From Candidatus Altimarinota bacterium (lineage in GTDB: Bacteria > Patescibacteriota > Gracilibacteria > JANQMV01), in NCBI GenBank assembly GCA_028279865.1, contig JANQMV010000004.1, positions 10,602-50,601 of the forward strand: 40,000 nucleotides of DNA, written 5' to 3'. Positions 17,532-39,426 of this stretch are shown piece by piece (positions within the stretch are counted from its first letter, which is position 1; each line of letters opens with the position of its first letter). The translations under genes and the position numbers were made by a program. The notes under the pieces were generated by a model. The model did no database searches. It was given only the letters and a program-made list of their open reading frames with translations, and was not told the origin of the DNA.

Positions 17532-17574
17532 CTGATATTGATTATTGGTCTAGTACTTAAGTTTTCATTTCAGA

Positions 17575-17994: not shown

Positions 17995-18085
17995 ATAATT
18001 ATTCTTTTTACTTGAAATTAAAAAACTAATTTCTTAACCCTAAATTTTGCTATGAGATTTTACTGATTTACAGTATAAAATCAAG

Positions 18086-18733: not shown

Positions 18734-18762
18734 AGTCTAAAAATTAAAAATGTGATAATAAA

Positions 18763-19089: not shown

Positions 19090-19107
19090 ATTTCGTAAGT
19101 AAGTTTC

Positions 19108-19386: not shown

Positions 19387-19420
19387 TGTGTGAAATCTTT
19401 AAGTTTTAGAATTTGAAAAA

Positions 19421-20251: not shown

Positions 20252-20265
20252 CTTCAGAGTTTAAA

Positions 20266-20568: not shown

Positions 20569-20590
20569 AACTGGTTTTTTAAGTGATTAA

Positions 20591-21220
20591 TTATTTTTTA
20601 ACAAAAATTTCTTCTGCCTTTTTTAGAGCTGGCTCCAAAAAAAGAACTTTTTCATACTTCGCTAAATCTGCAATATTCAGATAGTTTACCAATAATATCT
20701 TTACTCCCGGAATGTTTTTTGCTGATTTTTCAAGTATTTCGTTTTTCTTATCCAGGACAAAAAGTGTCCTTCTTGCTTTTGGTAATTTACCTAGCATTTC
20801 CACAACATGCTTTGTTTTGATTTCTTTTGCATCATATTTATCCAAAGCGGCAATCCCTCCATCTTTTGCTTTAAGTGACAATGCAGAGAATAAAGCTTTT
20901 CTTCTCTGTTTCTTGGGCATGTCTTTTTCAAAATTTCTATTATTTCTCGGTGCCATTGCATTGCCTCCACCTTTGTAGTGAGGGTTACGGATCGAACCTT
21001 GACGGGCACGACCGGTTCCTTTTTGGCGGTAAGGCTTTGCCCCACCTCCGCGGACCTCTCCTTTTGTAAGGGTATGTGCCAAATTAACGCGAGCATTGGA
21101 ATGCTGACGAACCAGAGCTTGATGCATCAATCCTTCATTAATTTCAGCCTTAAAGATAGCATCTGACACCTTGATTGTTTTTAATTTTTCGCCTTTTTGT
21201 GAGTACAAATCAATATTCAC
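20591..21220 (-). CDS. rplD: 50S ribosomal protein L4 (uL4)
   Basis: 209-aa ORF (...KGEVRGGGAKPYRQKGTGRARQGS...). Confidence 0.9.
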   Translation of the reverse strand: MNIDLYSQKGEKLKTIKVSDAIFKAEINEGLMHQALVRQHSNARVNLAHTLTKGEVRGGGAKPYRQKGTGRARQGSIRNPHYKGGGNAMAPRNNRNFEKDMPKKQRRKALFSALSLKAKDGGIAALDKYDAKEIKTKHVVEMLGKLPKARRTLFVLDKKNEILEKSAKNIPGVKILLVNYLNIADLAKYEKVLFLEPALKKAEEIFVKK

Positions 21221-21271
21221 CTTTACTTGAATTAAATTATTTTCTAAAAAAACAAAAGCTTAAGAAAAAAT

Positions 21272-21847
21272 TTAAGCTTTGATATAAACATAGGTATTGC
21301 GAGCTCCGGGAACAGCTCCTTTCACAGCTATAATATTTTTTGCTTCATCAACTAAAACAACCTTGCGGTTTTTTAGCGTGACCTGACCTCCGCCCATGCG
21401 ACCAGGCATTTTTTGTCCCGGCTTTGTCCTCCCTGGCATGGCACAAGCACCTGTTGAACCATGGCGAGTATATTTTGTTCCATGAGTTTCTCGGGCAATT
21501 GCAAAATTATGTCTTTTAATGTTTCCCTGAAAACCCTTCCCCTTTGAGACTGCCGTAATTGTGACAGTTTCAATCTCTTTAAAATTACCTACATTTACTT
21601 TGTCACCTTTTTTAAATTCAGCGTCTTCTTCAATACGAAATTCCTTAACTTTTTTGTATTTTTTATTCTTTGTTGGGTTCTTAAAAGAATCACAACCCAA
21701 AACGACAGCTGAGTAACCGTCATTATCAACTGTTTTCACTTGAATAATATCGTTTGGCTCAGTCTCAATAAAGGTAACGGGAAGAACGATTCCATCTTCA
21801 TTCAAAATTTGAGACATGCCGATTTTTTTACCAATAATTCCTAACAT
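21272..21847 (-). CDS. rplC: 50S ribosomal protein L3 (uL3)
   Basis: 191-aa ORF starting MLGIIGKKIGMSQI, with ...KGKGFQGNIKRHNF.... Confidence 0.9.
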   Translation of the reverse strand: MLGIIGKKIGMSQILNEDGIVLPVTFIETEPNDIIQVKTVDNDGYSAVVLGCDSFKNPTKNKKYKKVKEFRIEEDAEFKKGDKVNVGNFKEIETVTITAVSKGKGFQGNIKRHNFAIARETHGTKYTRHGSTGACAMPGRTKPGQKMPGRMGGGQVTLKNRKVVLVDEAKNIIAVKGAVPGARNTYVYIKA

Positions 21848-21929
21848 TCGTTTTTAGAGGTTAAGGATAGTGAAGATTCTTTTCAAACCCGCACCATCGC
21901 GGCTAACTTATATTTTTTAAAGCGGAGAA

Positions 21930-21958
21930 ATTCTATAGATGTTCAAAACCAAAGTCAA
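21930..21958 (-). promoter_or_regulatory. Candidate sigma-70-type promoter for rplC and the downstream cluster
   Basis: Minus strand reads TTGACT - 17 nt - TAGAAT (-35 at 21953-21958, -10 at 21930-21935), ~80 nt upstream of the rplC ATG. Confidence 0.4.
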
Positions 21959-22240
21959 GGACTTTTTTTGGTTTTTTTGTCGTACTTAAGAAGAACTCAG
22001 GATTTTAATGATTTTACAGGTGAATAAACTAGGATAAAACAATAACACTTTCTAAAGATTAACACAAAAACACAAGATTTATACTTGCTGACATTTTACG
22101 TTTTAGCATTAAAATCAGTTTTCACTAAAAACGATATTCTAGCTACCAAGAACAACTGAAGATTTAGTTCCGAAAATTTTAAGCAAAGTAGATTTGCTTA
22201 AATTGATTCTATAAATATAAAATATATTTGGAACAAAGCA

Positions 22241-22268
22241 TTGACACAACTATGCTTTGTGTTAATAT
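22241..22268 (+). promoter_or_regulatory. Near-consensus sigma-70-type promoter facing the GC-rich island
   Basis: TTGACA (22241-22246) - 16 nt - TAATAT (22263-22268), preceded by an AT-rich UP-like tract. Confidence 0.5.
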
Positions 22269-22473
22269 ATGCATCACAAACCAGCTCTTTAAAATCATTA
22301 GAATATTGATAGGTAAAAATCTGTGATTGATCTGCATCTTATAACACTCACTTCACCTTGTAATTGGGTGGTAGTGATAGTTTCTTGTCTGAATTCAAAC
22401 ACAGATACTCTGCCTATCAAAAAGATTATTCGGGCTATCAAATTAGGGACAACTTATGTTTTCGCTAGCTTGA

Positions 22474-22492
22474 TGGCTCGAACCGGTCGAGC
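22474..22492 (+). other. Perfect hairpin GGCTCGA-accgg-TCGAGCC at the 5' edge of the GC-rich island
   Basis: 7-bp stem seen directly. No T-run follows it. It lies 39 nt upstream of the island ORF start. Confidence 0.5.
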
Positions 22493-22530
22493 CGTATTAA
22501 AGTAAATTTCCTACAAAAGGGGAACAATAC

Positions 22531-22971
22531 ATGAGAGAAGCATTTCTTTTGACAATCAAGGGCCTCGTCCTTAGCCTGCTCATTCTTTGCCTGAACACAC
22601 CCACCATTGCACAATGCGGCGGAGCAGAAGCAGGCGCGTACTTCGCTGACATCAATGGGAAAAATCTCGGGATTAGAATCAGTGCTGTGATCCTTCCCAG
22701 CGGGTGGGTCCAAGTGCTGAACAAGGATGGATTGAAGACTGGGATTATAATCACCCAAGGCAAGACGGAAAACATAAGCGAAAAGGTGTCCGTTAATGGA
22801 AAAACTCGGGGAGCAGCACCCTTTCTTATGCGGAAGCCTACCATAATCAGTTTTCCTGATGGACGCAAACTGGATGTAGTCAACAGATTCACCGAAGTTC
22901 GGGTCGGTGATACCATCATCAAAAAAACAGGAATCGGCGCCTACATCTACCTTGAAATACAGGAGGGATAA
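22531..22971 (+). CDS. Small secreted protein of unknown function, in a compositionally foreign island
   Basis: 146-aa ORF. An SD-like AAAGGGGA lies 7-14 nt upstream of the ATG. N-terminal signal peptide (LLTIKGLVLSLLILCLNTPTIA|QC). The sense frame has purine-rich first codon positions and G/C-rich third positions. TAA stop followed by two terminators. Confidence 0.6.
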   Translation: MREAFLLTIKGLVLSLLILCLNTPTIAQCGGAEAGAYFADINGKNLGIRISAVILPSGWVQVLNKDGLKTGIIITQGKTENISEKVSVNGKTRGAAPFLMRKPTIISFPDGRKLDVVNRFTEVRVGDTIIKKTGIGAYIYLEIQEG

Positions 22972-22998
22972 CGCCCAGAACCGAGGCAGAGTAAAACA

Positions 22999-23038
22999 GG
23001 CGGCGCGCTTTCTCATCCAAGTTGCGCCCGCCTTTTTT
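22999..23038 (+). terminator. GC-rich rho-independent terminator of the island gene
   Basis: GGCGGCGCGC ... GCGCCCGCC stem (one bulge) followed by TTTTTT. Confidence 0.6.
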
Positions 23039-23063
23039 ACCATACAATTTTTTATCTACTACA

Positions 23064-23097
23064 AAAAAAGACATCTCTTTTGAAATGTCTTTTTTAT
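23064..23097. terminator. Bidirectional terminator between rpsJ (minus) and the island gene (plus)
   Basis: AAAGACAT-ctcttttgaa-ATGTCTTT hairpin with an A-run upstream and a T-run downstream. On the minus strand it lies ~25 nt past the rpsJ stop and is followed by TTTTTTT. Confidence 0.65.
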
Positions 23098-23118
23098 AAA
23101 TACTAATTATCACTCGTT

Positions 23119-23451
23119 CTACTTATCAGCGTTTTGAAACATTTTAATTTCAATCTCTACACCTGCCGGAAGACTTAAGTTTGAGAGTGTGTCAATCGTT
23201 TGCGAAGTTGCGTCAAGGATGTCAATTAACCTTTTGTGAGTTCTCATTTCGTATTGATCACGTGAGTCTTTGTTTACAAAAGTCGAGCTATTGACTGTAA
23301 ATTTTTTGATTTTTGTCGGAAAAGGGATTGGTCCCGCTACAATCGCACCTGTTCTTTCTGCAGATTCTACAATAATCCCCGCAGCTTTATCAATCACACT
23401 GTGATCAAAAGCTTTGATTGTAATTCTGATTTTCTGACTCTTTGCTGCCAT
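23119..23451 (-). CDS. rpsJ: 30S ribosomal protein S10 (uS10)
   Basis: 110-aa ORF ([19 protein letters not shown]..., RTHKRLIDI). Immediately downstream of tuf. Confidence 0.9.
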
Positions 23452-23462
23452 TTAAATATATT

Positions 23463-23475
23463 TTAGATTTTAGAA
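23463..23475 (-). promoter_or_regulatory. Conserved AU-rich motif TTCTAAAATCTAA, 11 nt upstream of the rpsJ ATG
   Basis: Third exact copy of the 13-mer. Confidence 0.35.
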
Positions 23476-23632
23476 CTTAGAGATTAAAAAGAGTGTCATA
23501 TGAGTCTATCGAAACACAAGACATCCACATGATTGTCACTCTTAGCCCCATATTGCGGGCTTAGAGGACGCTTTGTAAAAATAAACTTCATCTCCCGCCC
23601 AACTTAAAAACTAAATTGTGCGGGATAAAAAT

Positions 23633-24838
23633 CTATTTTTTGATTTTAGATACTACACCAGCACCTACGGTTCTACCGCCTTCACGGATTGCAAACCTTA
23701 AACCTTCTGCCATCGCAATCGCAGAGCCAAGTTTTACATCCATTTTAATGTTATCACCAGGCATCACCATTTCTACTCCTTCCGGAAGAACAATTTCTCC
23801 GGTCACATCAGTTGTACGGATGTAGAATTGAGGTTTATAACCTTTGAAGAACGGAGTATGACGTCCTCCTTCTTCTTTTGTTAGTACGTATACTTCAGCT
23901 TCAAATTCTGTATGTGGAGTAATTGTTCCCGGCTTAGCAAGAACCTGTCCACGTTCAATTTCTTCTCTTTCAATTCCGCGTAGAAGAGCCCCGATATTGT
24001 CACCAGCTTGACCTTGATCAAGAAGTTTTTTAAACATTTCCACTCCTGTTACCACTACTTTTCTGGTTTCTTTGATTCCGACAATTTCAACTTCTTCATT
24101 CACTTTAACGATACCTTGTTCAACTCTACCTGTCGCAACTGTTCCACGTCCTTTGATTGAGAAAACGTCTTCAACCGGCATTAAAAATGGTTTATCAAGT
24201 TCACGAACCGGATCCGGCACGTCGTTATCCACAGCTTCCATAAGCTCAAGAATTTTTCCACACCATTCACATTCTTTTTTACCACACATACATTCAAGTG
24301 CTTTCAAAGCCGAACCTCTGATAATAGAAATATCATCACCAGGGAATTCGTATTTAGAAAGAAGTTCGCGTACTTCCATTTCAACCAATTCGACAAGTTC
24401 TTCGTCATCTACCATGTCTACTTTATTCAAGAAGACAACGATATGAGGAACGTTTACCTGACGAGCAAGTAAGATATGTTCACGAGTCTGAGGCATTGGA
24501 CCATCAGCGGCAGAACATACCAAGATTGCACCATCCATTTGGGCAGCACCTGTAATCATGTTCTTTACGTAATCGGCATGACCTGGACAGTCAACGTGAG
24601 CATAGTGACGTTTTTCTGTTTCGTATTCAACGTGAGCTGTTGCAATTGTAATTCCTCTTTCTCTTTCTTCAGGAGCATTATCAATTTGATCAAAAGCTTT
24701 TGCTGTGTTAGCTCCTCCGAAAGCAGCTGCAAGAACGTTTGTAATTGCTGCTGTTAATGTTGTTTTTCCGTGATCAACGTGACCGATCGTACCTACATTC
24801 ACATGCGGTTTACTACGATCAAATGTAGCGTCTGCCAT
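23633..24838 (-). CDS. tuf: Elongation factor Tu with a Cys4 insertion in domain I
   Basis: 401-aa ORF with [15 protein letters not shown] and NKVD motifs. Contains an unusual [14 protein letters not shown] segment. Confidence 0.95.
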
Positions 24839-24914: not shown

Positions 24915-24943
24915 ATTTTAGCAAAAGAGATTTTTGCTGTCAA
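24915..24943 (-). promoter_or_regulatory. Near-consensus sigma-70-type promoter for tuf-rpsJ
   Basis: Minus strand reads TTGACA - 17 nt - TAAAAT (-35 at 24938-24943, -10 at 24915-24920). The spacer is itself a palindrome (GCAAAA-atctc-TTTTGC). Confidence 0.55.
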
Positions 24944-25045: not shown

Positions 25046-28000
25046 TTAAATTCAACCAATTATTGTAAAGATCACAGATCATCTATAAACATCACTCTCC
25101 TGATTGTAATCAATGTTTATGTAATAAAAGAGGTCGTTTTGATCATTTTCAATCCGGCTACCATGTGAAACACCTGTATCAGCCGTACTTGAGAGAGTGC
25201 CGAACGAATTGACTGTGACAGCAGTACTTGTTAGAGCCCAACCAAAACGATTTTCAACATTTTTAGCATCACCTGTAAGTAATTGATTGCCGGTGTTTGT
25301 TGTTCCGTCCAAGACAGCCGATCAGGTCGCAGAATGTCCTGACAAGGCTATACGTAGGGAATATCAATTTTCGTTGTTTGTACTTACGGTTACCGTGTTT
25401 TTTTGTGTGACAGCACCTCCTGTTCCCGCCCAGTTTTGCCCCATTTGAAAGTCAGGGTCAATATTGAAAACCACCGAACCGGTATCTACCGAAGCAACCA
25501 AGGCTTCTTGAAGCTGAACGTTCAAAGCAACTTGTTGTGCTGAGATAGTAATATCAGCCAGACCGCTTTCCAATAGAGTACTACCTGAATTATAGATATT
25601 AATTGTCAATTCATAAACTCAAGTTGAAGCAGGATTTTTTACCTTATTATTACTAAAGCGCATTTCAAGCACGTCACCGACAGCGACACTGCCTGTAATT
25701 GTGGAAACAACCGTAGTTCCTGTGGAGTTTACAAGATCAACGCTACCAGAGATACTTCCGCTTGCTGATTGGACTGTGATATCACTTTCTGCCAAACTGC
25801 CTGTAAATGCATACGCGCCACTGTTAAAAATTACTTCCATCTTATCTCCTGTGTTTAGTTCAATGCTAACGGGAAAATAGACAATATAATTTGTGGTATC
25901 AGCAATACGAATGCTTTCTGCAGAGACAGACCCTCTTTCTCCATTTGTAGTGTCGAAAGTGAAGGTTGCCGAAGCTGTTTTTTCTTCATTTTGAGCAGTA
26001 TCGGTTGCACGGCTTTTAATTGTATAGCGACCTCCATTCGTCCAAACGGGTGAAATATATGTCCAATTTTCCGCACCATCAGCCAACAGCCAGACTTCAC
26101 TAGTTGCGACAAAGCCTGTTCCCGAATACCATTTGTCTGCGGTTAAATCCTTAATACTGACTCTAACGAAATCAACAGCTGTTTGGGCGTCGGAAGCTGT
26201 TCCAATAATTTTGGGTAATGCACTCAAATCATCTCCATCTCTCGGATAGAGAATTTTTGAACTTGGTTCTTGTGTTTCGAGGCTAAAAGTTGCAGTTTGG
26301 GAACTCCAAACACCTTCTCCACTGTCATCATCCCAAAACTTAATTCTCCAATAGTAGGTAATACCTCCGCTTAATTGATCCCCGGCATAAGTAATCGCCT
26401 CGCAGACTGTGTTAACCAAACAACCTGTACCTGACAACGCAGTTCCGCCAGAACCTGAATCCCAAAGAGTCGTACCTGTAAAAGTAGAAGCTGTATTGAC
26501 TTGAATTTGATATTTTAGTGCGATATCCCCAGCATCACTGTCTCGATAAATTGCGGTAAATTCCGGCGTTGGATTAGGGAGATTAATAGGGTTTGCATTG
26601 CTTTCTGTTTTTAAAGTATCGGGGGCAGAGGGTTTCGCGTTTAAATCTGCCAAAAAACTGGCGGTTTCTGTGCTCCAGACTCCTTCGTTACCCTCATCAT
26701 CCCAAAATTTAATCCTATAGTAGTAAGTTGTATTATGAATTAATGTTGCTCCTGAGTAAATAATGTCACTTGAGCGATTCCCTGCGGTGATGTTGGTAAT
26801 CGTCACACCTGTACCCGAATCCCACTCCGGACTTGAGAAATCGCTGTTGTCATCAACCTGAATTTGGTAAGCATTGGCAATATCGCCTGCTTCAGGATCA
26901 TTGTAAATTGCAGAAAAATGTGGAGTGTTCGAGGTGATGCTCACACCTGTACCGGATGTGCCGGATTGGGCGTCTGTGTCATTGACATAAAGTATTGTTG
27001 GCTCTGTCGGAGCCGGATCTTCAGTGTACTTTATCGCTATTTGATTTATTTCCGAAGAATCTGTCTCTCCGTATGGGCTAGATGGTGGAGTGAAGTCTGA
27101 TGTCCAACGGGCTTCACCTTTGGTTATACGGATTTCGTCAAGATAGCCATCGAAATAAGTTGAAGCTGTTGGAACCCCATTTGGAACACCAGCTCAGAAT
27201 GATAATACTCCATCACTATCGACAAAAGTTAATCCTGTCACATCTACAGTCTCCTGAAGAGTACCATTTTGAAATAAGTAAACAGTATTACCACTACGCA
27301 CCATGGCAATGTGATCCCACTGTCCAGCATTAACCGTACCAAACGTCGTGCTTGGCCCCCAAGATGATCCTGTAGTTGATGTATGAAACCCAAAATCAAC
27401 TCCTGACATCACATAAAGTTGAACTGGAGAATAATTAGAAGCAAGTTTTTGTGTCACGAGCGCTTGATGCTCCGTACCAGATATATAATTAACCCAAAAA
27501 TCAATCGTAAAATCCTCACTGCCAAAGTCCCAATCATCACTATCCGGAAGAGTTAAACAATCTCCTGTCCCATCAAAATACATCGCACTTTTGCCAAACT
27601 TATGACTGACACTATGTTTTATGTCTCCATTTGCCGTAACCACATGTCCTGTGGATGCTCCGAAAGAATTGTCTGTAAAACTTGTAGAATTTGATGTTTT
27701 GTCAGATTGCAGTAACAAAACCGTATTCGCATCATTACCTAATCCCAGATCGTACTTGGCAGTCGGTGGCATGAAATTGGAAGTCCAGCGAGCTAAGCCT
27801 TTTGTAACACGTAGTTCATCGAGAAATCATTTCCACTCACTTTGAGGACCTCCCGAGTACTCTGCACCAATCGTAAGCACAGAATCTGAATCAAGCATTG
27901 TATCACCTCCAACGCTATTACTTCACACGTCTTGTCCATCCAAATAAATTGTTATAATATTTCAATTTCGTACTAAAGCAACATGGTGCCAATCATAATC

Positions 28001-31000
28001 CCACGATTGTGAACTAGAATTAAAATTCTTATTTCCACTTTCATTCGACCAAAAATATCCTGTTAAACGATCTCCAATAATTCTAAGTCCAAATGATTCA
28101 TGCATAGATGTATCTAACGAAGTTATAATCCAAGGATTTACACCAATGCCTGATTCTCTTTTGAACCAAGTATCAATCGTAAAATCTCCATTACCAAAGT
28201 CAAAATCATCCGAATCCGGAATACTCAAATAATCTCCCGTCCCATCAAAATACATCGCACTTTTGCCAAACACGGAATTTCGAACATGCTTTACATCACC
28301 ATTTATAGTAATTGCATGACTGCTATCAGAATCATCTGCAAAGGCTGCAGAGCCGTTTTCTGCATCCGAATGAATTAGGAGTTTTGTCTTTTCGTCATTT
28401 CAGTTTGTCACATCATCATTTGCCTGCAAGCTTACTGCTACGTCCAAAGATGTTTGACTCTTGTCAAAACCGCCTGTTTCTACCCAGTCAGAATCCATCA
28501 CAGCAGCAAGGTCATCTGCGGTCATTTGATTATCACGATATTTTGTCGCTTGAGATATGGCAGAATTCGCTGTATCACCACCCAAAGTTTCAGCTAATTC
28601 CCATGTATCCAAACTCGCAGGATAAGATGGAACTGTAAAATCAGAAGTCCAGCGGGCGATTCCTTTAGAAATACGCAGGTCGTCCACATACCCATTTAAA
28701 TAATTGCCTCAATCGCTTGTTTGTCCTCCAACTTGCAGCGGAATGCTTGGATTAACCCAATTTGTTCCTGCACTAATGGAATCTTCAATTAATAATGATC
28801 CATTTAAATATACTTTTAAAACATTTCCCTCTCTTATAATTGCAATATGATTCCATGCATTTTGTATAACTGAATTAGTGGAACTTTGAGTGTTTACTTC
28901 AGCAGTCCCTGCATTGACCATTACCGTATATAAGTTACTATTTTCGATCCTCGTATACCACCTATTGCTGACATCTTCCCATTGACTAATCAAATATTGT
29001 GTCCCGGACAAACTTCTTGGATTCACCCAAAAATCAATTGTAAAGTCTTCGCTTCCAAAATCCCAATCATCACTATCCGGAATGGACAAATAATCATCCA
29101 CTCCATCAAAAGAGAGAGCGTCACCAAACTCATCTGGAAGTCCGGAAATTTTTACATCTCCATTTGCAACTGGTAGATGATTTGAACTTGAAGAATCTGT
29201 AAAAGTTGTCGAGCCTTCTGGTCCATCCATATTTAATAACAATTTTGTATTTATATCTGCAGAATGAGGAATCGTAGGAACTACGATAGAATCAGAATCA
29301 TCACTTTGAGGACTAGCACCATATCTATTATCATGCGTTATTTTTAGACTTTCCATCGCCCCTTCAAAATCATCACCATTCCCATAATTCCCAATCAATA
29401 ATGCCCCTGCAAACGTATCAACATTTGATTCTGAAAGATATTTAACCTGTTGTCCATTCACATATACGCCATATTCATTTCCAATTTTAATTAACGCGAT
29501 ATGTGTCCATTCATTATTGCTCAAAGGATGGTTTGTTCCAGTTATATCAACAATATATGAACCACCACTTCTCATTTCAAAATCTAAGCCACCACCATTA
29601 ATATGGAAGAATCTCCAAAAATTATTAATATCTTCGTACTGAGCTACATAACATTCATCCGTTGTTAAGTCAGTGTGTTTAACCCATAAATCAATCGTCA
29701 TATTCGTTCCAATATCCCAGTCAGTACTATCTGGCAAACTCAAATAATCACCCGTTCCATCAAAATATGCTGCCTGACCAAATCTGGCAGTATCATCCAT
29801 TTTCGTACCACCATTAAAAGTCACATCATGTTCCGATAAAGAACGATCTCCATCAAAATGTAAAAGTAGTTTTGTGTTGCTATCTGGAGTTTGGGCAGAA
29901 ACCGGCGGAGTGAAGTTTGAAGTCCAAAGTGCTTTACCTTTTGTGACACGAACTTCATCAAGTGATCCATTAAAATCAAAAGTTCCTGTATTCCATTGAG
30001 AACCTGTTCTTCCGTGTCCTCTTCCCACCTCAAATTTACCACCATTTACTGTTCCAGAAAGTGAGGTTGTTGTTCCAACAGATTGACCATTCAAATACAT
30101 TGTTATTGTCCCACTATTATTAGCAATAGCAACATGGTGCCAACCTGATTCCAAAAGCACAGAATTGCTAAAATCCGCAATTGTGTTTCAATCTCCCCAA
30201 TAAAATCTTAACAAATTAGAAGATTTTGTCAGCCTGATGCTCCATCAGTTACTTCAACCTACTCCGTCTGTATATGCTAGATGAATCCCATCGTTATTCT
30301 TCTGATTAAACCAATAATCAATAGTCCAATCAGTAGCAAAAGACAAATCCCAATCTTGTGAATCAGGGATAGTTAAATAATCATCCACTCCATCAAACTG
30401 CATCGCCCCACCGATCTTCCCACGATTATCTAACTTCGGATTTCCGTTCGTAGTAATTGCATGATTTGAAGGTGAAGAATCTCCTTCTCCGTGTAAAAGA
30501 AGTTTTATATTTTCATCCTGCCTGAGGTATCCCCATTTACCTGAATCAACGCCAGAAAATCCGGTCGTTGCGTCCACTTTGGAGGCAATTGTTCTCCAAG
30601 CACTTGCAATCTTATCCCAAATTTTGAACTCATTTCTGCCATCAAAACTAAGTGAATAAAAAGAATCTGAATCGTTGCTTAATTCATTTACGCTAACTCC
30701 GTCAATTCCTTGCCAAGCCGAAGTATCCACTTGGTCAGTTGATGTAATTGTAGTGTAGGTTTCCGCTGGCGCGCTTTCTTCAACTGTTCCTACAATTTTT
30801 AAATTGTCTATATATTGAGAACCTCCTGTTGCGCCACCCCATACAACGTAATCATTTCAATCGTAGAAGGAATGTCCTGTTATGTCCAAAGTTTGCCTCT
30901 GGGGCCAGACAAGGCTTGATTCGGAAGGAGAAGGGTACCAAGTCACTTGGTTACCAATTCTTTCTATTTTTACGTAATACCATGTTCATGCTGAGAAGCT

Positions 31001-34000
31001 AAAACCTGAACCCGAAGCGTAAATTATACTGCCTGCATTATTTGTCATTGATAAATTCCAGGTTGAAGTATCCTCTCAGGTTGGAATAAATTTTCAAAGA
31101 GCCAAGGATGTATTACCTGAAAGATTGTTTACTGTTAAGGCTCTTTCAGAGGAACCTTCAGGTCTGATCCAAGCTGTTATAGCAAAATCATGATCTAAAA
31201 CTTGCCCCCACTTTTTCGATGCTTCTGTTTTCCAATGATTAACATCGCTTGATGGTTTATACATAGAATGACTCCCTCCACTGTCAGTTGGCACTGTTGT
31301 ACTAAAATTAGCAGAACCATTCAACGAACTTGTGTAATCACCACTAATAGTGTTCAGATTATTGCCGTCAAATTTATACTCTTCTTCAAAGTTCAGCTTT
31401 GTTTTTACCAATTTAACTTCTCCTTCATCAAATTCCGTAAGATAAATTTCACTTACTACGCCATCAGCGACATGCTCGGACAAAATGACCTGACCGCTCC
31501 CACTACCTTCTCCTTTGATTTCTAAAATATCATAAAATGTTCCATCAACCTTCACCCGACTACCTTCGCGTACCTTAGGACTGTCAATAAAATGCATGAA
31601 GGCTGGAGGTGTAAAATTTGAAGTCCAGCGGGCAAGTCCCTTGGTTATACGAAGTTCGTCAAGATAGCCTTTGATTGACTCATTGCTCATTTTAGAACCA
31701 ATATATAGAGCATCTGAAACATCATCGAGAGCCAATCAAGACGACCAGGTTTCTACAATTTGACCATTGTTAAATGTATAAAAGATATCTCCGGATCGCA
31801 CTAAAGCATAATGGTTAAACCCACTACTTGAAAAGCTTCCCAAGGATTTTCCATTTGCAATATCCCATGATGCACTGTTACTGGACAACCAAGTAACAAG
31901 ATTCCCACTTGGAGCATCAACATCAATCAAAAATGGTCTATGTCCTGAACCATATCTTCTTGTAATTAATCCATTCCCCCATGATCACACTGTGCCATCG
32001 TCCTTATACCAAAAATCAATTGTAAAGTCTCCACTCCCAAAATCCCAATCAGCACTATCATTTAAATGTAAATAATCCCCCGTTCCATCAAAATAAAGCG
32101 AAGTGTTACCCAACTTATTCGCCCCAGTTGAATGTTGAACATCACCATTGACCGTGACTTCTTTGCCAAAAATTGATGTATCTTCAATATTTTTTGATCC
32201 ATCTGTGTTATTCGATTGAATTAAGAGTTTTGTATCTGCACCACTACCAATAGTTACCACCGATCCACTTGCCGTCTCAAAATGACCTGCATTTTCCGGT
32301 GTGAAATTTGAAGACCAGCGAGCAATTCCTTTGGAAATACGAATTGCATCCAAGCGACCATTGAAATAGTGATTGTAGTTATATCTTTGTACTCCAATAT
32401 GCAACATTCATTGACCGTTCAAAATTCCACCAATATGAGTAACTGTATTTAAAAGTTCACCATTAACATATAAAGAAAAAGTGCCTCATTCTCTTACTAC
32501 AGCCACATGGTACCATTCTCATTCATGCATATTGCTAGTTCCAGACAATACTGGCAAGTAACCAGAGTCATCATCCTTGCGAAATAAAGCTCGTAGAGTT
32601 CATCCTTGATGTGCAATAGAAAATGATGCATTCCCATCATTACCGCTAGCTCTACCTTGCCAAAAAATTATATTTTCATTTATTACATCATCTGGATTCA
32701 TCCAAAAGTCAATCGTAAAATCCTCATTCCCAAAGTCCCAATCATCACTATCCGGAAGAGTTAAATAATCTCCACTGCCGTCAAACTTGTAAGCTCCACC
32801 GTATTTTCCATCTGAACTGATCTGCGCATTTCCATTAAAAGTAATTTTGTGATTTGCAGCAGAAGCATCTCATTCAAAATCTAGCAATAGATTTGTATTT
32901 GTAGTAACTGTAGCCGGAACAGTTGGAGGCATAAATCCTGTTTCCCAGAGTGCTTCTCCTTTGGTAATTCGAAGGTCATCCATATAGCCAGTAAAAGGAC
33001 TACTTACTCCATTGTAAATGCCTACATACAAATTTGATGAACTTCCCGAAACAGCTCCCAGATGAGATTGAGGAAAGTTGCTGTCTAATACACCATCAAT
33101 ATAAATTGAAATATCATCCTGGTCTCTGGTTATTGCAAAATGAGTCCATTGATTCAGAGGCACAGTATTTGTCGTCGTATTTACCCAAACATCATTTGGT
33201 CCTAAATACAGAGATATTTGCCTACTGGCAGTAAGCCACACTTGAAAGCCTCTGTTGGCATATGCGCCTTGCTCTAAAATCACGCTAGAACCACCCTTCG
33301 TGTAAATCCACCCATCAATCGTAAAATCTCCATTACCAAAGTCAAAATCATCCGAATCGGGAATACTCAAATAGTCCCCATTCCCATCAAAATAGATTGT
33401 ATCGCCAAAAATATTACTAAATCCTGTAATTTTAGAATCACCCACAGCATTTACTGCATGAACTGTGTTTCCACTATCAGTAAAGCTTGTTGAACCTTCT
33501 GCCCCATCCGCATGAATCAATAGCTTCGTATTCGTATCTGAATTCACTGCAGAAGTCGCCGGAGTAAAATTAGCAATCCAACGAGCATCACCTTTGGTAA
33601 TACGAATATCATCCATATAACCTTTAAAATCAAGTGCTGGGAAATTTGCATATGATCCGATCACTAAATCAGAGATCTCTCCCGTATGATTTCCGGAAGC
33701 CGATGTATCAGTCATTGTGATTTTGCCGTCAAGAAACAAACGTGCAGTACTGCCTGATCTGTTTAAAGCTACATGATACCATTTGTGTGTTTCTAAGTTA
33801 TTCCCAACATTATTCATACTAATCACATCATTCCCACCAGCATAAATATATGCTGCCAAATTACCAGCCGGTTGCATCATAATGCGAATATTCCCATTAT
33901 GACGAGTTGATCCGCCTGTTCCTCCATTTTCCTGACTTGCATGAGGATAATCCTCTCTCGAAATCAATATTTGCTCCCCGATTTGCTCGAAATATACCCA

Positions 34001-35131
34001 AAAATCAATCGCAAAATCACCCGTACCAAAACTCCAATCAGCATGATCTGGAATTTCAAGATAATCTCCTGCTCCATCAAAATAAACTGCTTCGGCAAAC
34101 TTGGTTGTATTTGTAATTACCGGATCACCATTTACCGTCACATCATGCCCCGTATTCCCCCGATCTCCATCGGCGTGTAAAAGAAGTTGTGTCTGCGCAT
34201 CGCTTGAATATTCTCCTACTCCATCATTTACCCAATTTGTAATCTTACGTTTGACATCTTCTTGAGTATAATTTGCCTCATCCGTGAAGGTGATATAAGT
34301 CGTGGGGTCCAAAGCAATGGGATAAACCAAGCCTTTTGTATCGGCAAAAAGCTGAAGCCTTATCAACTCTTCTGTTTGGCTCAAAATTGTCCAGTAAGCC
34401 TTCTCGCTACGTTTGCCTTCTGCATCCAGCATGTATGGCGCCGGATGATACATTGCGACATTTCCTTTCGAATTGTAGTAATTGACTTTTCCTTTTTCTA
34501 TTACTGCGAATAAGTCTGTCTTAATTTCGTATTCAAATTGCCATTTTCCCTCACCGATATAACCGATATTAGTCGCATCAGTACGAGCAGAGTTTGCGGT
34601 AGCAGGTGTAGTGGAGAAATCTTCCTCAGGATCTCTGTTAAGAGGAATTTCTTTCAAAATCAGATCCTCTTTCACCCCTCGCTTCACCACTGTTTTTAGC
34701 ATGTCAACATCATCATAAACCTCCTTGAAAAGCACCTGATTTGCACTCTGTTGGGCAACGGATGGGTTTGCATTGACAGGTGTGATTTTCAGCTGCTCTA
34801 CTTGATTTTCAGCCTGAACTGTTCCTTCTTTGGCACGACTGGAAATAATCTCCGAAGAATATTTTTTATTTAGTTCAATGTTTGCAACTGCAGTCTGCGC
34901 AATAAATAAATCCTTATTCCCTTTTACTTTTTCAAAACTCTTACTCTTGTCACGCAAATCATCCATTCGCATTACTTCGGAAAGTTGTTTAATTTCCGGC
35001 GAGTTAATCTCAGTAGAAAATAAATTTGAAAGCCAGATCGAGGCAAAAATTGTTCAAGTTAATAAAATTGTGATCAAAAAGCTCTTTTTTTTCAGCAAAG
35101 AGAGGATTTCTTTATTTTTTATTGAGAACAT
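25046..35131 (-). CDS. Giant secreted/surface protein, ~3,361 aa under translation table 25 (26 in-frame UGA read as Gly). Signal anchor, then an N-terminal beta-rich domain, ~10 LamG/ConA-like modules, 2 FN3-like modules, an Ig-like module and a C-terminal region of unknown fold.
   Basis: All 12 track ORFs from 25079 to 34972 share one frame (end coordinate mod 3 = 1). I translated every gap by hand. The only interruptions are TGA. The first TAA/TAG in frame is TAA at 25046-25048. Upstream, the frame stays open to ATG 35129-35131 (alternative ATG 35165-35167; TAA at 35168-35170). The N-terminus MFSIKNKEILSLLKKKSFLITILLT-G-TIFASIWLSNLF is a signal anchor. Confidence 0.85.
26279..26938 (-). 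repeat. Two tandem FN3-like beta-sandwich modules inside the giant gene
   Basis: A pattern occurs twice: P.F(S/T)AIY.D..AGDIA..YQIQV...F...WDSG...Y.G..L....TYY(Y/W)RIKFWDD.G.EGVWS...A(S/T)F. Confidence 0.6.
27090..34192 (-). repeat. Tandem array of ~10 LamG/Concanavalin-A-like (Laminin_G_3-type) modules inside the giant gene
   Basis: Ten copies of the core motif (G/E)DFTIDFW(V) and variants (DFAIDFW, DWTIDYW, NMTIDLW, DFAITAW). Each is embedded in ...LLLH.DG...FG.A.YFDG.GDYL.IPDSDDWDFG..DFTIDFW...W.H.A..R.G....Y.NG...GY.D(D/E).RITKG.ARW...FTPP. Confidence 0.75.
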
Positions 35132-35170
35132 GGTTTTTAATAATTTATATTTTGATATTTTTTTCATTTA

Positions 35171-35199: not shown

Positions 35200-35380
35200 G
35201 GTTTTGTTGCCGCCTTAAGCATTGTCTTAAATTGATTAATTTAATCCTCCTTTAATTTTTCAATATAAAAAGCTCAATAAAGCATAGCAGCCCATAAATA
35301 AACACTATTTTACACTTTACACTTAAGTTTTTAAGCTTTAAAATGAGTTTTACATAGATATAATTTTTAATAAAAAACAT

Positions 35381-36025
35381 ATGTTTACCCAAGCGCAAGC
35401 ACCTGCAGTTCAATCTCCGACTTTTTTAAATAAAGTTTTCGGCTACTTTGGAATTGCTATTTTGATGTCAGCTGTTGGAGTCTTTTATGCACCGGCATTT
35501 TTACCTCCATCTGCTTACAATATTGCCCTGATTTTAGAGTTGGTTTTGATTTTTACATCAGGTATGTGGTCGCAAAAAAGACCTTTGAACATTATCCTGT
35601 TTGCAACTTTCGCTTTTTTAACAGGTGTAACGGTGGTACCTCTACTTGCAATGGCTAATGCCGTTGGCGGAGCTGCTTTAATTTACAAGGCACTCTTTGC
35701 TACAACCGGTATGTTTCTGGGAGCAGCAACCTATGGTTTCATTACAAAAAGAAATTTAATGGGAATGCGAGGATTTTTAATTACCGGATTAATTGGGTTG
35801 ATTATCGTTGGCATTTTGCAAATCTTTTTCTACTCTTCAACAGTTGAACTTATTTCTTCTGGTGTTGGAGTTTTGCTTTTTTCCGGCTTCATAGCTTATG
35901 ATATTCAGAAACTAAAGTATTATCCTGAAAATATGGCTTTAGAGGCTGCTTTATCTTTATATTTGAGTTTCTTCAACCTATTCATTTCCGTACTTCGATT
36001 AATGACAGCATTAGGTCGAAATTAA
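35381..36025 (+). CDS. BAX inhibitor-1/YccA-family integral membrane protein
   Basis: 214-aa ORF with about seven hydrophobic segments and the family-typical C-terminal region (...AYDIQKLK...ALSLYLSFFNLFISVLRL). Confidence 0.75.
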   Translation: MFTQAQAPAVQSPTFLNKVFGYFGIAILMSAVGVFYAPAFLPPSAYNIALILELVLIFTSGMWSQKRPLNIILFATFAFLTGVTVVPLLAMANAVGGAALIYKALFATTGMFLGAATYGFITKRNLMGMRGFLITGLIGLIIVGILQIFFYSSTVELISSGVGVLLFSGFIAYDIQKLKYYPENMALEAALSLYLSFFNLFISVLRLMTALGRN

Positions 36026-36103
36026 GAACACGGAATTTTCATTTGCCAAAAACAGACAAATCAAGTAAAGTTTCGTAGCTTAAAAATTTAACGAGAATAT
36101 ACT

Positions 36104-36334
36104 ATGGCAGTTCCAAAGAAAAAAGTCTCAAAAGGACGTTCCTCCAGGCGTTATAAAACTTATGTAAAAAAACAACATAAGAAGATTTTGGACAAATTGG
36201 TCTTGGTTGATTGTCCTCAATGTAAAGAGAAAAAAATCGCCCACCAGGTTTGTAAAACTTGCGGGACTTACAATGGAAGACAAGTCTTGGACATGGAAAA
36301 GAAAACGGAAAAAGTAACCAAAGTTTTGGCTTAA
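36104..36334 (+). CDS. rpmF: 50S ribosomal protein L32 (bL32), Zn-ribbon form
   Basis: 76-aa ORF starting MAVPKKKVSKGRSSRR, with CPQC...CKTCG. Confidence 0.85.
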   Translation: MAVPKKKVSKGRSSRRYKTYVKKQHKKILDKLVLVDCPQCKEKKIAHQVCKTCGTYNGRQVLDMEKKTEKVTKVLA

Positions 36335-36380
36335 TTCAACTTTTTTCTAAAACCTTTTATCAAGAAATAATTGACTCTAA

Positions 36381-36797
36381 ATGCCAAGTTTTCGACATCT
36401 CTCGCGGGTTGTTTCTATGCAAACTTTATTTGAATATAGCATCCGCAAAAATAGTGATCCTCGTAAAATTCTCAAATACAATCTAAAAGTTTTTGCTAAT
36501 AAAGTAGAAGATATCAGCTTTTTAGAGCAGCTTATTTTTGGTGTTATCGAAAATCGAGAAAAAATTGATGACAAAATCAAAAAATATGCGCCGGAATGGC
36601 CAATTGAAAAACTGGCTTTAGTCGAGAGGATTATTCTGGAAATAGGTTTGTTTGAACTCTTATACACAGATGATACTCCGCATGCTGTTATCATTAATGA
36701 AGCTGTTGAAATTGGTAAAAAATACGGAGATGAGAATAGTAATAAATTCATCAATGGAGTTCTAAGTACCGCTAGTAAAAAAATTAAGAAAAAATAA
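36381..36797 (+). CDS. nusB: Transcription antitermination factor NusB
   Basis: 138-aa helical ORF (R..SRVVSMQTLFEY..., ...AVIINEAVEIGKKYGDENSNKFINGVL). Confidence 0.8.
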   Translation: MPSFRHLSRVVSMQTLFEYSIRKNSDPRKILKYNLKVFANKVEDISFLEQLIFGVIENREKIDDKIKKYAPEWPIEKLALVERIILEIGLFELLYTDDTPHAVIINEAVEIGKKYGDENSNKFINGVLSTASKKIKKK

Positions 36798-36800
36798 TCT

Positions 36801-37493
36801 ATGCAAAACGATTATTCTGCTTTGGAGGAAAGCATTGGCATAAAGTTTAAAAAAACAGACTTGTACAACGATGCCTTTACGCACAAGTCTTACATGAATG
36901 AAAACAGAAACATCAAAAAAACTGATAACGAACGGTTGGAATTTTTAGGAGATGCTGTTTTAGAATTAATCGTGACAGAGTTTTTATACTTAAATTATCC
37001 TGATCCTGAAGGCGTTCTGACAAATTGGCGCAGTGCATTGGTAAAAAAAGAAACTCTCGCCAGTATCTCCAGAGAGCTGGAATTAGGTCAGTATCTCTTT
37101 CTAAGCAAAGGAGAAAATGCCACGGGAGGAAGGGACAAAGACTATATCTTAGCCAATACTTTTGAAGCATTGCTAGGGAGTCTTTATTTAGATCATGGTT
37201 ATCCTGTTGCGAAAAAATTTGTTGAAAAAAAACTTCTTATCAAACTTGAAAAAATAATCTCCGACGGATCATATATTGACGCCAAATCTCACTTTCAAGA
37301 AGTTGCCCAAGAAAAGACAGGGATAACCCCAAGCTACAAACTCATCAAAGAAGAAGGTCCTGATCACAATAAAATTTTTACTATGGGTGCCTACATTGAA
37401 AAAAAAATTTATGGTAAGGGATCGGGGTCAAACAAACAAGCCGCTGAGCAAGCCGCAGCGGGAGACGCACTAAAGAAACAAGGCTGGCAGTAG
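36801..37493 (+). CDS. rnc: Ribonuclease III
   Basis: 230-aa ORF with the signature ERLEFLGDAVLE and a C-terminal dsRBD (GPDHNKIFTMGAYI...GSGSNKQAAEQAAA). Confidence 0.9.
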   Translation: MQNDYSALEESIGIKFKKTDLYNDAFTHKSYMNENRNIKKTDNERLEFLGDAVLELIVTEFLYLNYPDPEGVLTNWRSALVKKETLASISRELELGQYLFLSKGENATGGRDKDYILANTFEALLGSLYLDHGYPVAKKFVEKKLLIKLEKIISDGSYIDAKSHFQEVAQEKTGITPSYKLIKEEGPDHNKIFTMGAYIEKKIYGKGSGSNKQAAEQAAAGDALKKQGWQ

Positions 37494-37517
37494 GTAATAA
37501 AGTGTAAAATAAAAAAA

Positions 37518-38048
37518 ATGTATGAAGTCGAAGCGAAAGTCTGGGTAAAGCAAAAAAAGGAATGGCAAAGCCTTTTGGCGAAAATCAAAGAAGCTGCAAA
37601 ATTTGAGAAAGAAGAAATAAAAGAGGATTTATATTTTGGGCGAGAAAAATCCTCCGAAGCTGTTTTTCGTTTGCGCACAAAAGATCAAAAAACACACACC
37701 GTCACTACAAAAGAAAAAAACATTATAGAAGGAATCGAGCAAAGCAAAGAAAGATCATTTAAAATAGACCAGCTGAAAAATTTTCTTTTTTTTACGGAAG
37801 GATTAGGTTTTAAGCTAATTTTAAAGAAGAAAAAAGTAAGTCGTGTCTTTATCAAAAAAAACCTAAGCATTGAACTTAATACTATTGAAAATTTAGGAAA
37901 TTTTTTGGAGATTGAGTCTCTTTGCAAAATTAAAAGCGAGATTCCTCAGGCTCGTCGTCAGATAACAAAAATATTTCGTCAATTAGGCTTTGAGCAAAAA
38001 GATTTTGAAAAAAGACCTTATTTGGAAATTTTACAAACTTTGAGCTAA
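37518..38048 (+). CDS. CYTH-domain protein (class IV adenylate cyclase / triphosphatase family)
   Basis: 176-aa ORF opening with an ExExK motif (YEVEAKV). Its size and beta-rich pattern fit CYTH proteins. Confidence 0.6.
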   Translation: MYEVEAKVWVKQKKEWQSLLAKIKEAAKFEKEEIKEDLYFGREKSSEAVFRLRTKDQKTHTVTTKEKNIIEGIEQSKERSFKIDQLKNFLFFTEGLGFKLILKKKKVSRVFIKKNLSIELNTIENLGNFLEIESLCKIKSEIPQARRQITKIFRQLGFEQKDFEKRPYLEILQTLS

Positions 38049-38060
38049 TGTCTTATTTTA

Positions 38061-39368
38061 TTATTCTGCCCCAATTTCAGTTAAGCACTGGTTTACTAAA
38101 CTCGCATTATAGATCGCCTTACAAATATTGCCGTCACCAGCCTTAAGAGCAGCGTCATATAAGTTTTGGTTGATCTCATTAATACAGGTGTTTTTCAAAT
38201 TATCATCATTTTTAATTTCAGCACATTTTGAAAGACGATCAGAAGCCACTGCTGTACTTTTGATGCGCGCATTTTGGCAGGCTTCATTTTTACTAAGATC
38301 TTGCAAAAAATCACACTGACCCAAGGCTTCATAAATAGTTTCCTGGCAAGTCAGACGCAAAATAGAATCATTAATTCTATTGCAATAATTTGCGTTTAAT
38401 TTATCGGTAGCCAGATCATAATTTCCTTCATCCGTATTAGGGTACTGATCCCAATACATTCCTCCTGAACTTGAGCCTGATGATGAGCTTGAACTGCCTT
38501 GATTTGGCTCGTTCTCTTCGCGGAGGGGATTGTCCGAGGTGTTTGCCGAATCTGATCCACCTGAGGAGCCAGAGCTGCTTGTAGTTAAATTTTCTTCTGC
38601 ATGAGCTGATTCATTTTCAACTGGTGGGGCTGAGTTATCATTCTCAAAACTGTCTTTTTGTTCAATTTCTTCCGCCGGAATTTCAATCATCTCTACTTCC
38701 GTAATTTCTGCTCCTGTAGATAAAACAACTTCGATTTCATCTAAATCATTAAAGTTAATTTCCTCTGAGGGCAGGAGAATTTTTCTTTGGATAAAATCAC
38801 CTTCCTTAATTTTTTCAGTCAAAATAACTTCAACCATTTTTTCATCCGCATCTACGTAATTCCATTCACCTTCACCAGATTCGATTAATTCATCACCACT
38901 GCGGATTTTGATTGTGCCTTGTTTTTTTATCTCTTTAAATAAACCAGTATCACCATCATCAGTCAGAGCATCATAAACAGTCGCTCCACTTGCCAGATAA
39001 ATTTGGAAAAAATCAGGTTGCGTTGTTACGATTCTGCCTGAAGTAATTGCAAGTTTACGATGCATAATTGCTGCTCCGCTGGAGTATTTTATTTCTGTCA
39101 CAATAGGTTCCTCCTTTGATAAAATTTTACCACTACCGGAAAGTAGTAAATCACTGCCCGTAAAAATGTATATTGAATCAGTAAAATTAACCCCCTGATA
39201 ACCATAATCCGTACTATTCAAAATCCTGCCTGCAGGGTTATCAAAAGCAGACTTAAAAAGACTAAAAAGCATTCCGACAAAAAGCAGTAATGCTATAAAA
39301 ATCAATACGATAAGATGTTTTTTATTCATGTCTTTTTTTATTTTGCTATCCACTCTATTTTTTACCAT
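38061..39368 (-). CDS. Membrane-anchored hypothetical protein with an acidic/Ser-rich linker and a Cys-rich C-terminal domain
   Basis: 435-aa ORF with an N-terminal TM helix (HLIVLIFIALLLFVGMLFSLF), SSSGSSGGS / SSSSSSGSSSGG tracts, and nine Cys in the last ~130 aa. Confidence 0.6.
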   Translation of the reverse strand: MVKNRVDSKIKKDMNKKHLIVLIFIALLLFVGMLFSLFKSAFDNPAGRILNSTDYGYQGVNFTDSIYIFTGSDLLLSGSGKILSKEEPIVTEIKYSSGAAIMHRKLAITSGRIVTTQPDFFQIYLASGATVYDALTDDGDTGLFKEIKKQGTIKIRSGDELIESGEGEWNYVDADEKMVEVILTEKIKEGDFIQRKILLPSEEINFNDLDEIEVVLSTGAEITEVEMIEIPAEEIEQKDSFENDNSAPPVENESAHAEENLTTSSSGSSGGSDSANTSDNPLREENEPNQGSSSSSSGSSSGGMYWDQYPNTDEGNYDLATDKLNANYCNRINDSILRLTCQETIYEALGQCDFLQDLSKNEACQNARIKSTAVASDRLSKCAEIKNDDNLKNTCINEINQNLYDAALKAGDGNICKAIYNASLVNQCLTEIGAE

Positions 39369-39426
39369 TCTTCATTAAAAATTCAAAGACAAAATCAAAA
39401 ATAACTCACTTTCTGATTTTGTAAGC

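Follow-up and report, generated by a model that had tools for sequence, protein, structure and literature searches.

A giant LamG-repeat gene with 26 in-frame UGA glycine codons in a bacterial chromosomal region otherwise free of them

The window analysed here is the whole 40,000-nucleotide stretch of contig JANQMV010000004.1 from a Candidatus Altimarinota bacterium. It contains a giant open reading frame (ORF) with 26 in-frame TGA codons and no TAA or TAG in 3,373 codons, flanked on both sides by genes that have no in-frame TGA at all. A second possible start is the ATG at 35131 (codon 13), and every one of the 26 TGA codons lies 3' of both starts. The giant gene, its parts and the surrounding genes are arranged as follows.

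25046..35167, minus strand: giant ORF; ATG at 35167, 3,373 sense codons, TAA stop
35024..35083, minus strand: codons 29-48 (SFLITILLTGTIFASIWLSN), a hydrophobic N-terminal stretch predicted from the translation to be an anchor or signal segment
27068..34219, minus strand: divergent LamG (concanavalin-A-like lectin) repeat array found with Pfam, codons ~317-2700, with 20 of the 26 UGA codons
25049..26947, minus strand: C-terminal part, codons 2741-3373, with two Ig_Rha78A_N domains and a conserved C-terminal region
35056, 32872, 32602, 32521, 32488, 32410, 31987, 31738, 31096, minus strand: first bases of giant-gene TGA codons 1-9
31078, 30988, 30859, 30256, 30247, 30190, 28711, 28402, 27964, minus strand: first bases of TGA codons 10-18
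27925, 27829, 27196, 25621, 25366, 25324, 25081, 25054, minus strand: first bases of TGA codons 19-26
286..24838, minus strand: UGA-free genes to the left, namely yebC, rpsR, rpsF, a nifS-like gene (plus strand), a polysaccharide deacetylase gene, the S10/spc/alpha cluster, secY, adk, map and tuf
35381..39999, both strands: UGA-free genes to the right, namely BI-1, rpmF, nusB, rnc and CYTH (plus), and a 435-aa hypothetical and a DedA/VTT gene (minus)

The giant protein matches Laminin_G_3 (PF13385) in nine stretches (547.7 bits, E = 2e-166) and Ig_Rha78A_N (PF25788) in two. It is rich in Gly, Ser, Thr and Asp and has 4 Cys in total. Multiple above-threshold domains and a predicted hydrophobic N terminus agree with what defines a LamG/Laminin_G_3 repeat surface protein. 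The first UGA, at codon 38, is inside the predicted N-terminal hydrophobic segment, and five more (codons 3183, 3268, 3282, 3363 and 3372) are in the C-terminal part. The public protein call P0001 (window 25619-26944) covers a 441-aa piece of this gene, begun from a GTG inside the frame (codon 2742) and closed by the UGA of codon 3183. This partial call shows that the giant gene is fragmented in the public annotation, and its end at a UGA indicates that the contig was annotated with translation table 11. The first-pass annotation of this DNA, which was made from the sequence without database searches, had considered that the gene might be a non-expressed relic. A pseudogene or relic is ruled out by the absence of TAA and TAG from the entire frame, by the intact domains and by the conservation of the C terminus, past all the UGA codons, in five orthologues.

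We curated 44 other genes in the window, a set that further includes infA and rpoA and in which the polysaccharide deacetylase is a lipoprotein and the NifS-like protein an aminotransferase. There is no in-frame TGA in their 8,030 codons; out of frame, the same genes contain 179 TGA in frame +1 and 365 in frame +2. At the density of the giant gene, 62 in-frame TGA would be expected (P ~1e-27). Expressed per glycine codon, the contrast is 26/336 in the giant gene against 0/625 in the other window genes (Fisher p = 7e-13). All 45 window genes, the giant gene included, end in TAA (33) or TAG (12) and none in TGA, and tryptophan in the ordinary genes is always encoded by UGG. Our recount gives the same contrast as the first-pass annotation, which had reported TGA as confined to the giant gene (26 against 0) and had expected tens of TGA elsewhere at that density. 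The figure of 26 stands, and the other tallies (47 genes with ~8,300 codons, and ~3,361 codons for the giant gene) are replaced by 44 genes with 8,030 codons and by 3,373 codons counted from the ATG at 35167.

The comparison was extended to the flanks of the window and to related loci. Two loci come from the same organism, L001 (10 kb, on the left side of the window) and L002 (on the right side). L085 and L170 are 34 kb of one Joint Genome Institute (JGI) contig from a close relative (EF-Tu 96% and SecY 88% identical), and L171 (SecY 90%), L174 (EF-Tu 91%) and L175 (EF-Tu 94%) come from further relatives. The C-terminal 681 aa of the giant protein served as the homology-search query, and fragments of giant-gene orthologues are available from other metagenomes (L087, L088, L174 and L175/L176).

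UGA is a glycine codon in this organism. When eight LamG repeats of the giant gene are aligned, UGA falls in glycine columns (two columns with seven Gly and one UGA, one column with five Gly and two UGA), and none of the tryptophan columns in the alignment contains a UGA. Codons 3183, 3268, 3282 and 3363 of the window gene, all UGA, are GGN in up to four orthologues (L087, L088, L174 and L175). The exceptions among the C-terminal sites are codon 3282, where L175 shares the UGA, and codon 3372, where L087 has AAT. The orthologues, moreover, bear UGA codons of their own at other conserved glycines. The first-pass annotation had taken the glycine meaning as its starting assumption, and both the repeat columns and the orthologous GGN codons agree with it. 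Decoding as tryptophan (table 4) is rejected because there is no W in the UGA columns of the repeat alignment or of the codon-level orthologue alignment; a UGA is paired with W once, in a weak local BLAST match with a distant homologue (P0077, 26% identity). Selenocysteine is likewise rejected, as there are 26 sites, aligned with Gly, in a protein with 4 Cys. The Rfam scan, which was the sole search relevant to selenocysteine insertion sequence (SECIS) elements, returned none. Rfam scans of the window and the related loci gave nothing relevant, and no tRNA genes were found in the window, L001, L002 or L085-L088. Compared with what is expected under table 25, the gene is intact with UGA at the Gly positions of its homologues and UGA is absent as a stop from the 45 window genes. 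The broad use of UGA that table 25 would also predict, conserved genes included, is not seen, with 0 UGA in the other 8,030 codons.

The ordinary genes in L001, L002, L085, L170, L171, L174 and L175 have no in-frame TGA and end in TAA or TAG, barring one ambiguous rplC in L174, which leaves 0 to 1 TGA stops among ~100 genes of the clade relatives. We pooled 46 non-ribosomal genes from the window, L001, L002, L085, L170 and L171 (transporters, transketolase, glycosyltransferase, MurJ, LytR, aminotransferases, and hypothetical and membrane proteins; the pool overlaps the window's 8,030-codon set). In these 13,920 codons there are 968 GGN and 0 TGA, in comparison with 310 GGN and 26 TGA in the giant gene (p = 2e-16). 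TGA is present, on the other hand, in the giant-gene orthologues: 6 in 963 codons of L087, 3 in 839 codons of L088, and a single one in the short C-terminal piece from L174 and likewise in that from L175. The anomaly is two-sided: UGA is nearly unused across the clade, and the giant-gene family stands far above that background. The first-pass annotation had allowed for the window being a sampling fluke, and both the 46 non-ribosomal genes and the TGA codons in orthologues from four relatives speak otherwise.

A related possibility is that UGA is moderately common in accessory genes throughout the genome, so that the contrast is really one between core and accessory genes. All the retrieved loci flank tuf, secY or yebC, and a lineage-specific ORF at L001:5062-6486 may contain a further UGA. 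However, the 46 UGA-free genes include lineage-specific hypothetical, membrane and envelope genes, and a sampling effect of this kind would be a variant of the explanation by weaker selection that we favour below rather than a true alternative. We think it very unlikely.

The ORF just mentioned is on the plus strand, ~5 kb to the left of the window, and has 474 codons with a single in-frame TGA at codon 97. Standard-code callers split it into pieces of 96 aa and 350 aa, with no Pfam entry on record for either. Apart from the giant gene, this may be the sole gene of the organism in which a UGA was seen. The ambiguous rplC (L174 2510-3082) ends AAA ACT TGA AAT TAA, and reading UGA as Gly would add two residues before the TAA. 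This TGA is a UGA tolerated at the gene end or, alternatively, part of a tandem back-up stop.

The time available for UGA to enter ordinary genes can be gauged from 19 housekeeping genes shared by the window and its closest relative, L085. At 1,055 fourfold sites, 48% differ between the two, and where one genome has G, the other has T at 27% of sites. Glycine codons differ in about half of the conserved Gly columns. Among 199 GGA instances, ~53 GGA/TGA pairs would be expected if the change were neutral, and 0 were observed. Together with the 48% fourfold divergence, this indicates that UGA is kept out by ongoing purifying selection and not by shortness of time; UGA in ordinary genes is thus actively selected against. 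The reassignment is older than the divergence of the window and L085, since orthologues that are equally or more diverged all read UGA as Gly. Within the giant gene, fourfold sites have T:G at ~2.2:1, yet TGA:GGA is 26:121. A TGA:GGA ratio so far below the fourfold T:G ratio suggests that there is selection against UGA in the giant gene too, but several-fold weaker.

The giant gene does not differ from its neighbours in mutation. Its C-terminal part has a fourfold divergence of 0.55 from L175 and 0.73 from L174, and the values for tuf, S10, L3, L2 and S3 are 0.39-0.51 and 0.53-0.72, respectively. In the same genome pairs, amino-acid identity is 68% for the giant C terminus and 78-94% for the neighbouring housekeeping genes. 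Similar fourfold divergence with lower protein identity means that the giant gene is fast in protein, not in mutation. Hypermutation is rejected on the same fourfold values, a gene-specific G-to-T bias because fourfold T:G is alike in the giant and the other genes, and amplification of a UGA-bearing repeat unit because one repeat column alone has two UGA.

These results bear on two explanations put forward in the first-pass annotation. One was that conserved genes still reflect codon usage from before the reassignment, with UGA accumulating in a fast-evolving gene; the relic half of this proposal fails at the missing GGA/TGA pairs, and the fast-evolving half is borne out by the lower protein identity. 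The other was acquisition of the giant gene from another table-25 lineage that uses UGA more heavily. For a foreign origin one can cite the locus of L085, the closest relative by EF-Tu, which has other genes upstream of tuf and lacks the giant gene at this position, and also the G+C content, which is slightly higher in the giant gene (0.40-0.42 vs ~0.35). However, relative synonymous codon usage (RSCU) is near-identical for every amino acid and G+C at third codon positions (GC3) is 0.29 in both the giant gene and the rest of the window, so that the higher G+C is due to amino-acid composition. In addition, the giant gene is directly upstream of tuf in L087, L174 and L175/L176, as it is in the window, with the promoter and leader of tuf conserved, and UGA codons appear to have been gained in separate lineages. 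A scan of metagenome contigs with the three-orthologue alignment found no further orthologues and no UGA-rich, donor-like homologue. The matches in that scan were Ig_Rha78A_N-domain relatives in standard-code candidate phyla radiation (CPR) contigs, in which the TGA codons of the long ORFs lie upstream of the real start. Transfer is not supported by these findings, and a time lag is contradicted by the near-saturation of synonymous sites between relatives whose ordinary genes are still without UGA. We regard a relic or a horizontal acquisition as most improbable.

The positions of UGA turn over among the orthologues. A five-way alignment of the C-terminal part has eight UGA columns, of which seven have UGA in one lineage, with mostly GGN in the other orthologues, and one is shared by two of the five. 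UGA in one lineage with GGN elsewhere suggests that UGA was gained after divergence, repeatedly. Within the giant gene there is no difference between UGA and GGN in the conservation level of the Gly columns in which they occur (Mann-Whitney p = 0.62).

The first-pass annotation had also proposed that the supply of the UGA-decoding tRNA throttles translation of the adhesin. The turnover bears on this functional interpretation, in which a scarce or regulated tRNA-Gly(UCA) would act as a throttle or switch on full-length adhesin and the number of UGA codons, not their position, would set or gate the output. There are 0 UGA in ~22,000 ordinary codons of the clade and 0.4-0.8% UGA in every giant-gene orthologue, and three lineages have similar densities even though their UGA positions turn over. 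Absence from housekeeping genes with restriction to a few genes is the distribution of a rare-codon regulon, a likeness of pattern only. Recoding in phages offers an analogy (PMC10746230), and 26 UGA in one gene fit poorly with a codon that is simply costly. The variable positions tell against site-specific pauses, although not against a bulk effect of number. Two further observations are less favourable: UGA occurs, as GGN does, in Gly columns of all conservation levels, and TGA:GGA in the giant gene is ~10-fold under the neutral expectation, so that UGA looks tolerated rather than favoured. A throttle is, on balance, unlikely.

The use of the remaining stop codons also differs within the wider group. 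TAG makes up 27-39% of stops in the window clade (window, L085, L170 and L171) and 0% in the two nearest outgroup loci, L086 and L091. Stops in L091 are TAA in 25/26 and TGA in 1/26 (rpsQ), and those in L086 are TAA in 26/26 and TGA in 0/26. The rise of TAG would fit termination by release factor 1 (RF1) alone. A further alternative is that reassignment is ambiguous or incomplete, with release factor 2 (RF2) or another terminator competing with a Gly suppressor tRNA, so that UGA does harm in either role, stop or sense. In the giant protein, partial termination at successive UGA codons would then give a ladder of shorter, N-anchored surface isoforms. Some 150 ordinary genes of the clade indeed use UGA in neither role, and the near-absence of TGA stops from the outgroups is the precondition for codon capture. 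The nearest named relatives, moreover, belong to a group treated in the literature as using table 11, and a comparable intermediate, with UGA read as Trp, is known in a Providencia symbiont of leeches (PMC10540940). On the other hand, the domains past all 26 UGA are well conserved in five orthologues, which argues that the full-length product is under selection; a product stopped at the first UGA, codon 38, would be useless; and the high share of TAG is what RF1-alone termination would give. Ambiguous reassignment is therefore, in our estimate, quite improbable.

Taken together, the data are best explained by a balance between mutation and selection, in which selection against UGA is much weaker in the fast-evolving giant adhesin-like gene than in other genes; we put the probability of this at about 0.5. 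UGA is decoded as Gly and is not used as a stop, but it would carry a cost and is not a neutral synonym of GGA. New UGA codons would arise continually by single-base change, mainly from GGA, and in ordinary genes, ribosomal or not, they would be quickly purged. In one vertically inherited family of giant LamG-repeat surface proteins they would persist, turning over fast, at 4-8% of Gly codons, the giant gene being presumably under relaxed or diversifying constraint and probably of low or conditional expression. We infer that the giant gene differs from ordinary genes in the intensity of selection, through either expression level or constraint, and the cost of UGA presumably lies in a dedicated tRNA-Gly(UCA) that would read it slowly or inaccurately.

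Several points weigh against this explanation. The sequence sampled amounts to ~100 kb of the clade, mostly around the ribosomal-protein cluster, so that a UGA content as high as that of the giant gene may occur in further accessory or surface genes. Genes presumed to be expressed at low levels (CYTH, DedA, SWIM, GT4, MurJ and hypotheticals) are also without UGA, which suggests that expression level alone may not account for the contrast. Finally, it is paradoxical that 26 'costly' codons should be carried in one 10-kb mRNA, where per-codon failure would compound, and this leaves room for a positive function.

The placement of the host is based only on best named matches. For SecY the best named relatives are 'Candidatus Peregrinibacteria' (66-71% identity), and for EF-Tu they are Peregrinibacteria or Patescibacteria (~82%), beyond a tight clade of metagenomic relatives at 79-96% identity. 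There are no BD1-5 or Absconditabacteria names in the best 120 matches of the SecY or EF-Tu search. The ribosomal proteins are 59% identical to those of the Peregrinibacteria genome L091, the outgroup with the TGA stop at rpsQ. A genome-contig search with ribosomal protein L3 was taxonomically uninformative, as it returned universal-motif matches to relatives at <=47% identity from many phyla. The rpmD (L30) gene is missing from its place between rpsE and rplO (window 13202-13450), and in L170 a DJ-1/PfpI gene (8839-9423) is inserted there. Lack of rpmD is a hallmark of CPR bacteria. From these comparisons the host looks like a CPR bacterium that is Peregrinibacteria-like rather than a member of a classical table-25 lineage.

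In the literature consulted, UGA-to-Gly decoding is ascribed only to the GTDB class JAEDAM01 (BD1-5 and Absconditabacterales), and Peregrinibacteria, now the GTDB class Gracilibacteria, are treated as table 11 (10.64898/2026.05.24.727570; PMC13293708). The lineage described here is not at present listed as a user of the UGA-to-Gly code. A more far-reaching proposal, which we think unlikely, is that this is a new UGA-to-Gly lineage on the Peregrinibacteria side of the Peregrinibacteria/Gracilibacteria/Absconditabacteria group, arising independently or as a deep branch. UGA would long have been close to 'unassigned' in it, serving ordinary genes as neither stop nor sense codon, and would be exploited only in the giant adhesin-like gene, through a dedicated and possibly regulated or partly competing suppressor tRNA that gates or grades output.

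A second 'Candidatus Altimarinota' genome (L089, GCA_050246795.1) has in-frame TGA at the extreme C termini of genes (3844-5448 and 5430-6206), either as TGATGA or as TGA followed by four codons and a stop. These TGAs seem to be real stops in a genome mis-annotated with table 25. L089 was accordingly rejected as a table-25 baseline, its TGA codons being gene-end stops misread under NCBI table 25. Mis-annotation of NCBI 'Gracilibacteria' with table 25 has been reported in the gTranslate preprint, and L089 agrees with that report.

The flanks of the giant gene and the ribosomal-protein cluster next to it contain some further features.

35307..35334, minus strand: weak sigma-70-like promoter match TTAAAA-16-TAAAAT, 5' of the giant gene start; a consensus match of a class not enriched over shuffled sequence
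24915..24943, minus strand: strong promoter-like site for tuf, TTGACA-17-TG-TAAAAT, with 11/12 consensus matches, between the giant-gene stop and tuf

The presence of its own promoter-like site suggests that tuf is independent of read-through from the giant gene. A comparison of window 24839-25045 with L087 2892-3182 shows conservation of the tuf promoter and of a leader that contains a hairpin (GCGCTTGCAATTTTTGTAAGTGC), next to an upstream giant gene that is highly diverged. In the rplC-rpsJ spacer (21848-23118) there is a 590-nt segment (22465-23055) with a G+C of 0.477, the flanks having 0.24-0.31. Long ORFs run along each strand (minus, 192 aa; plus, 157 aa), and neither Pfam nor Rfam gives a match. 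The same spacer holds an unrelated HATPase_c gene in L085 and L175 and is almost absent in L174; a decayed HATPase_c copy was considered for the window spacer and rejected, as there is no similarity. The segment may be a structured RNA or a lineage-specific insert.

A clade of this kind is relevant to how codons change meaning. Codon capture and an ambiguous intermediate predict different sites at which a recaptured codon reappears and different spans over which it stays rare, and the present case indicates that strong avoidance of a reassigned codon can persist long past the change in the code. With exclusion from ordinary genes on one side and a tolerant family on the other, the cost in fitness that such a codon carries becomes open to direct measurement. 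The results also suggest that UGA-to-Gly decoding extends past the clade to which it has been ascribed, or arose twice. Genomes in which UGA is sparse escape coding-density heuristics and methods based on Pfam columns, with the result that annotation breaks up their largest surface proteins, as in the case of P0001. Episymbiotic CPR bacteria would have a novel form of translational control if the synthesis of the adhesin were gated by UGA. If the proposal of a new lineage is true, the clade would be a living example of a stable halfway state in codon reassignment, one that coding-density and Codetta-type screens would not see.

The closest known system is code 25 of Absconditabacteria (SR1) and BD1-5 (JAEDAM01), with which the window organism shares UGA as Gly, the lack of UGA stops, a low-GC CPR genome and giant surface proteins (PMC4032931, PMC8080830, PMC8629427). 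In SR1/BD1-5, however, UGA is frequent and found in many genes (PMC10746230, PMC13293708), whereas the window organism has none in the ordinary genes sampled. A low-power test gave no sign in it of the CGA/CGG-to-Trp change of Absconditabacteria. In 'Ca. Providencia siddallii' of leeches, a reassigned UGA (to Trp) is likewise present in a minority of genes, which has been read as a stage of reassignment (PMC10540940). There, UGA is found in 125/610 genes (20%), essential genes included, it arose via UGG>UGA and some UGA stops are left (PMC10540940). In the window clade, by contrast, UGA means Gly and is used by essentially a single gene family; UGA was not found as a stop, and the pattern persists through near-saturating synonymous divergence.

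In Streptomyces, TTA is an ordinary sense codon that is rare through high G+C and is read by the bldA tRNA-Leu(UUA); its targets are mostly regulators with one TTA each. The likeness to the present case would lie in a codon with a dedicated tRNA that is missing from housekeeping genes and confined to few conditional genes, but here there is one gene with 26 copies, and regulation of the tRNA would be hypothetical.

Uneven use of a recoded stop within one genome is also seen in alternatively coded phages, where it is concentrated in late or structural genes (PMC10746230). Some 'code-11-compatible' Gracilibacteria phage genomes avoid TGA both in frame and as sole stop (PMC10746230). Phages, however, switch code during infection or span hosts, and the giant gene is located on a cellular chromosome with ribosomal-protein operons. 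The giant protein itself resembles the 1,392-4,163-aa membrane proteins of Vampirococcus lugosii (PMC8080830) in being very large, N-terminally anchored, rich in binding domains and plausibly involved in host attachment. For such giant surface proteins of CPR episymbionts, those of V. lugosii included, no peculiarity of codon usage has been reported. For the repeat regions compared between the hypervariable surface-protein gene of a Gracilibacterium and a Colwellia counterpart, it is stated that TGA is not used (PMC6851277). In a limited literature search we came across no cellular genome for which the essential restriction of a reassigned stop codon to one gene family has been reported. What is known already, then, is table-25 decoding; what differs here is the extreme restriction of the codon to one gene, kept up by selection, and the apparent phylogenetic position of the organism that uses it.

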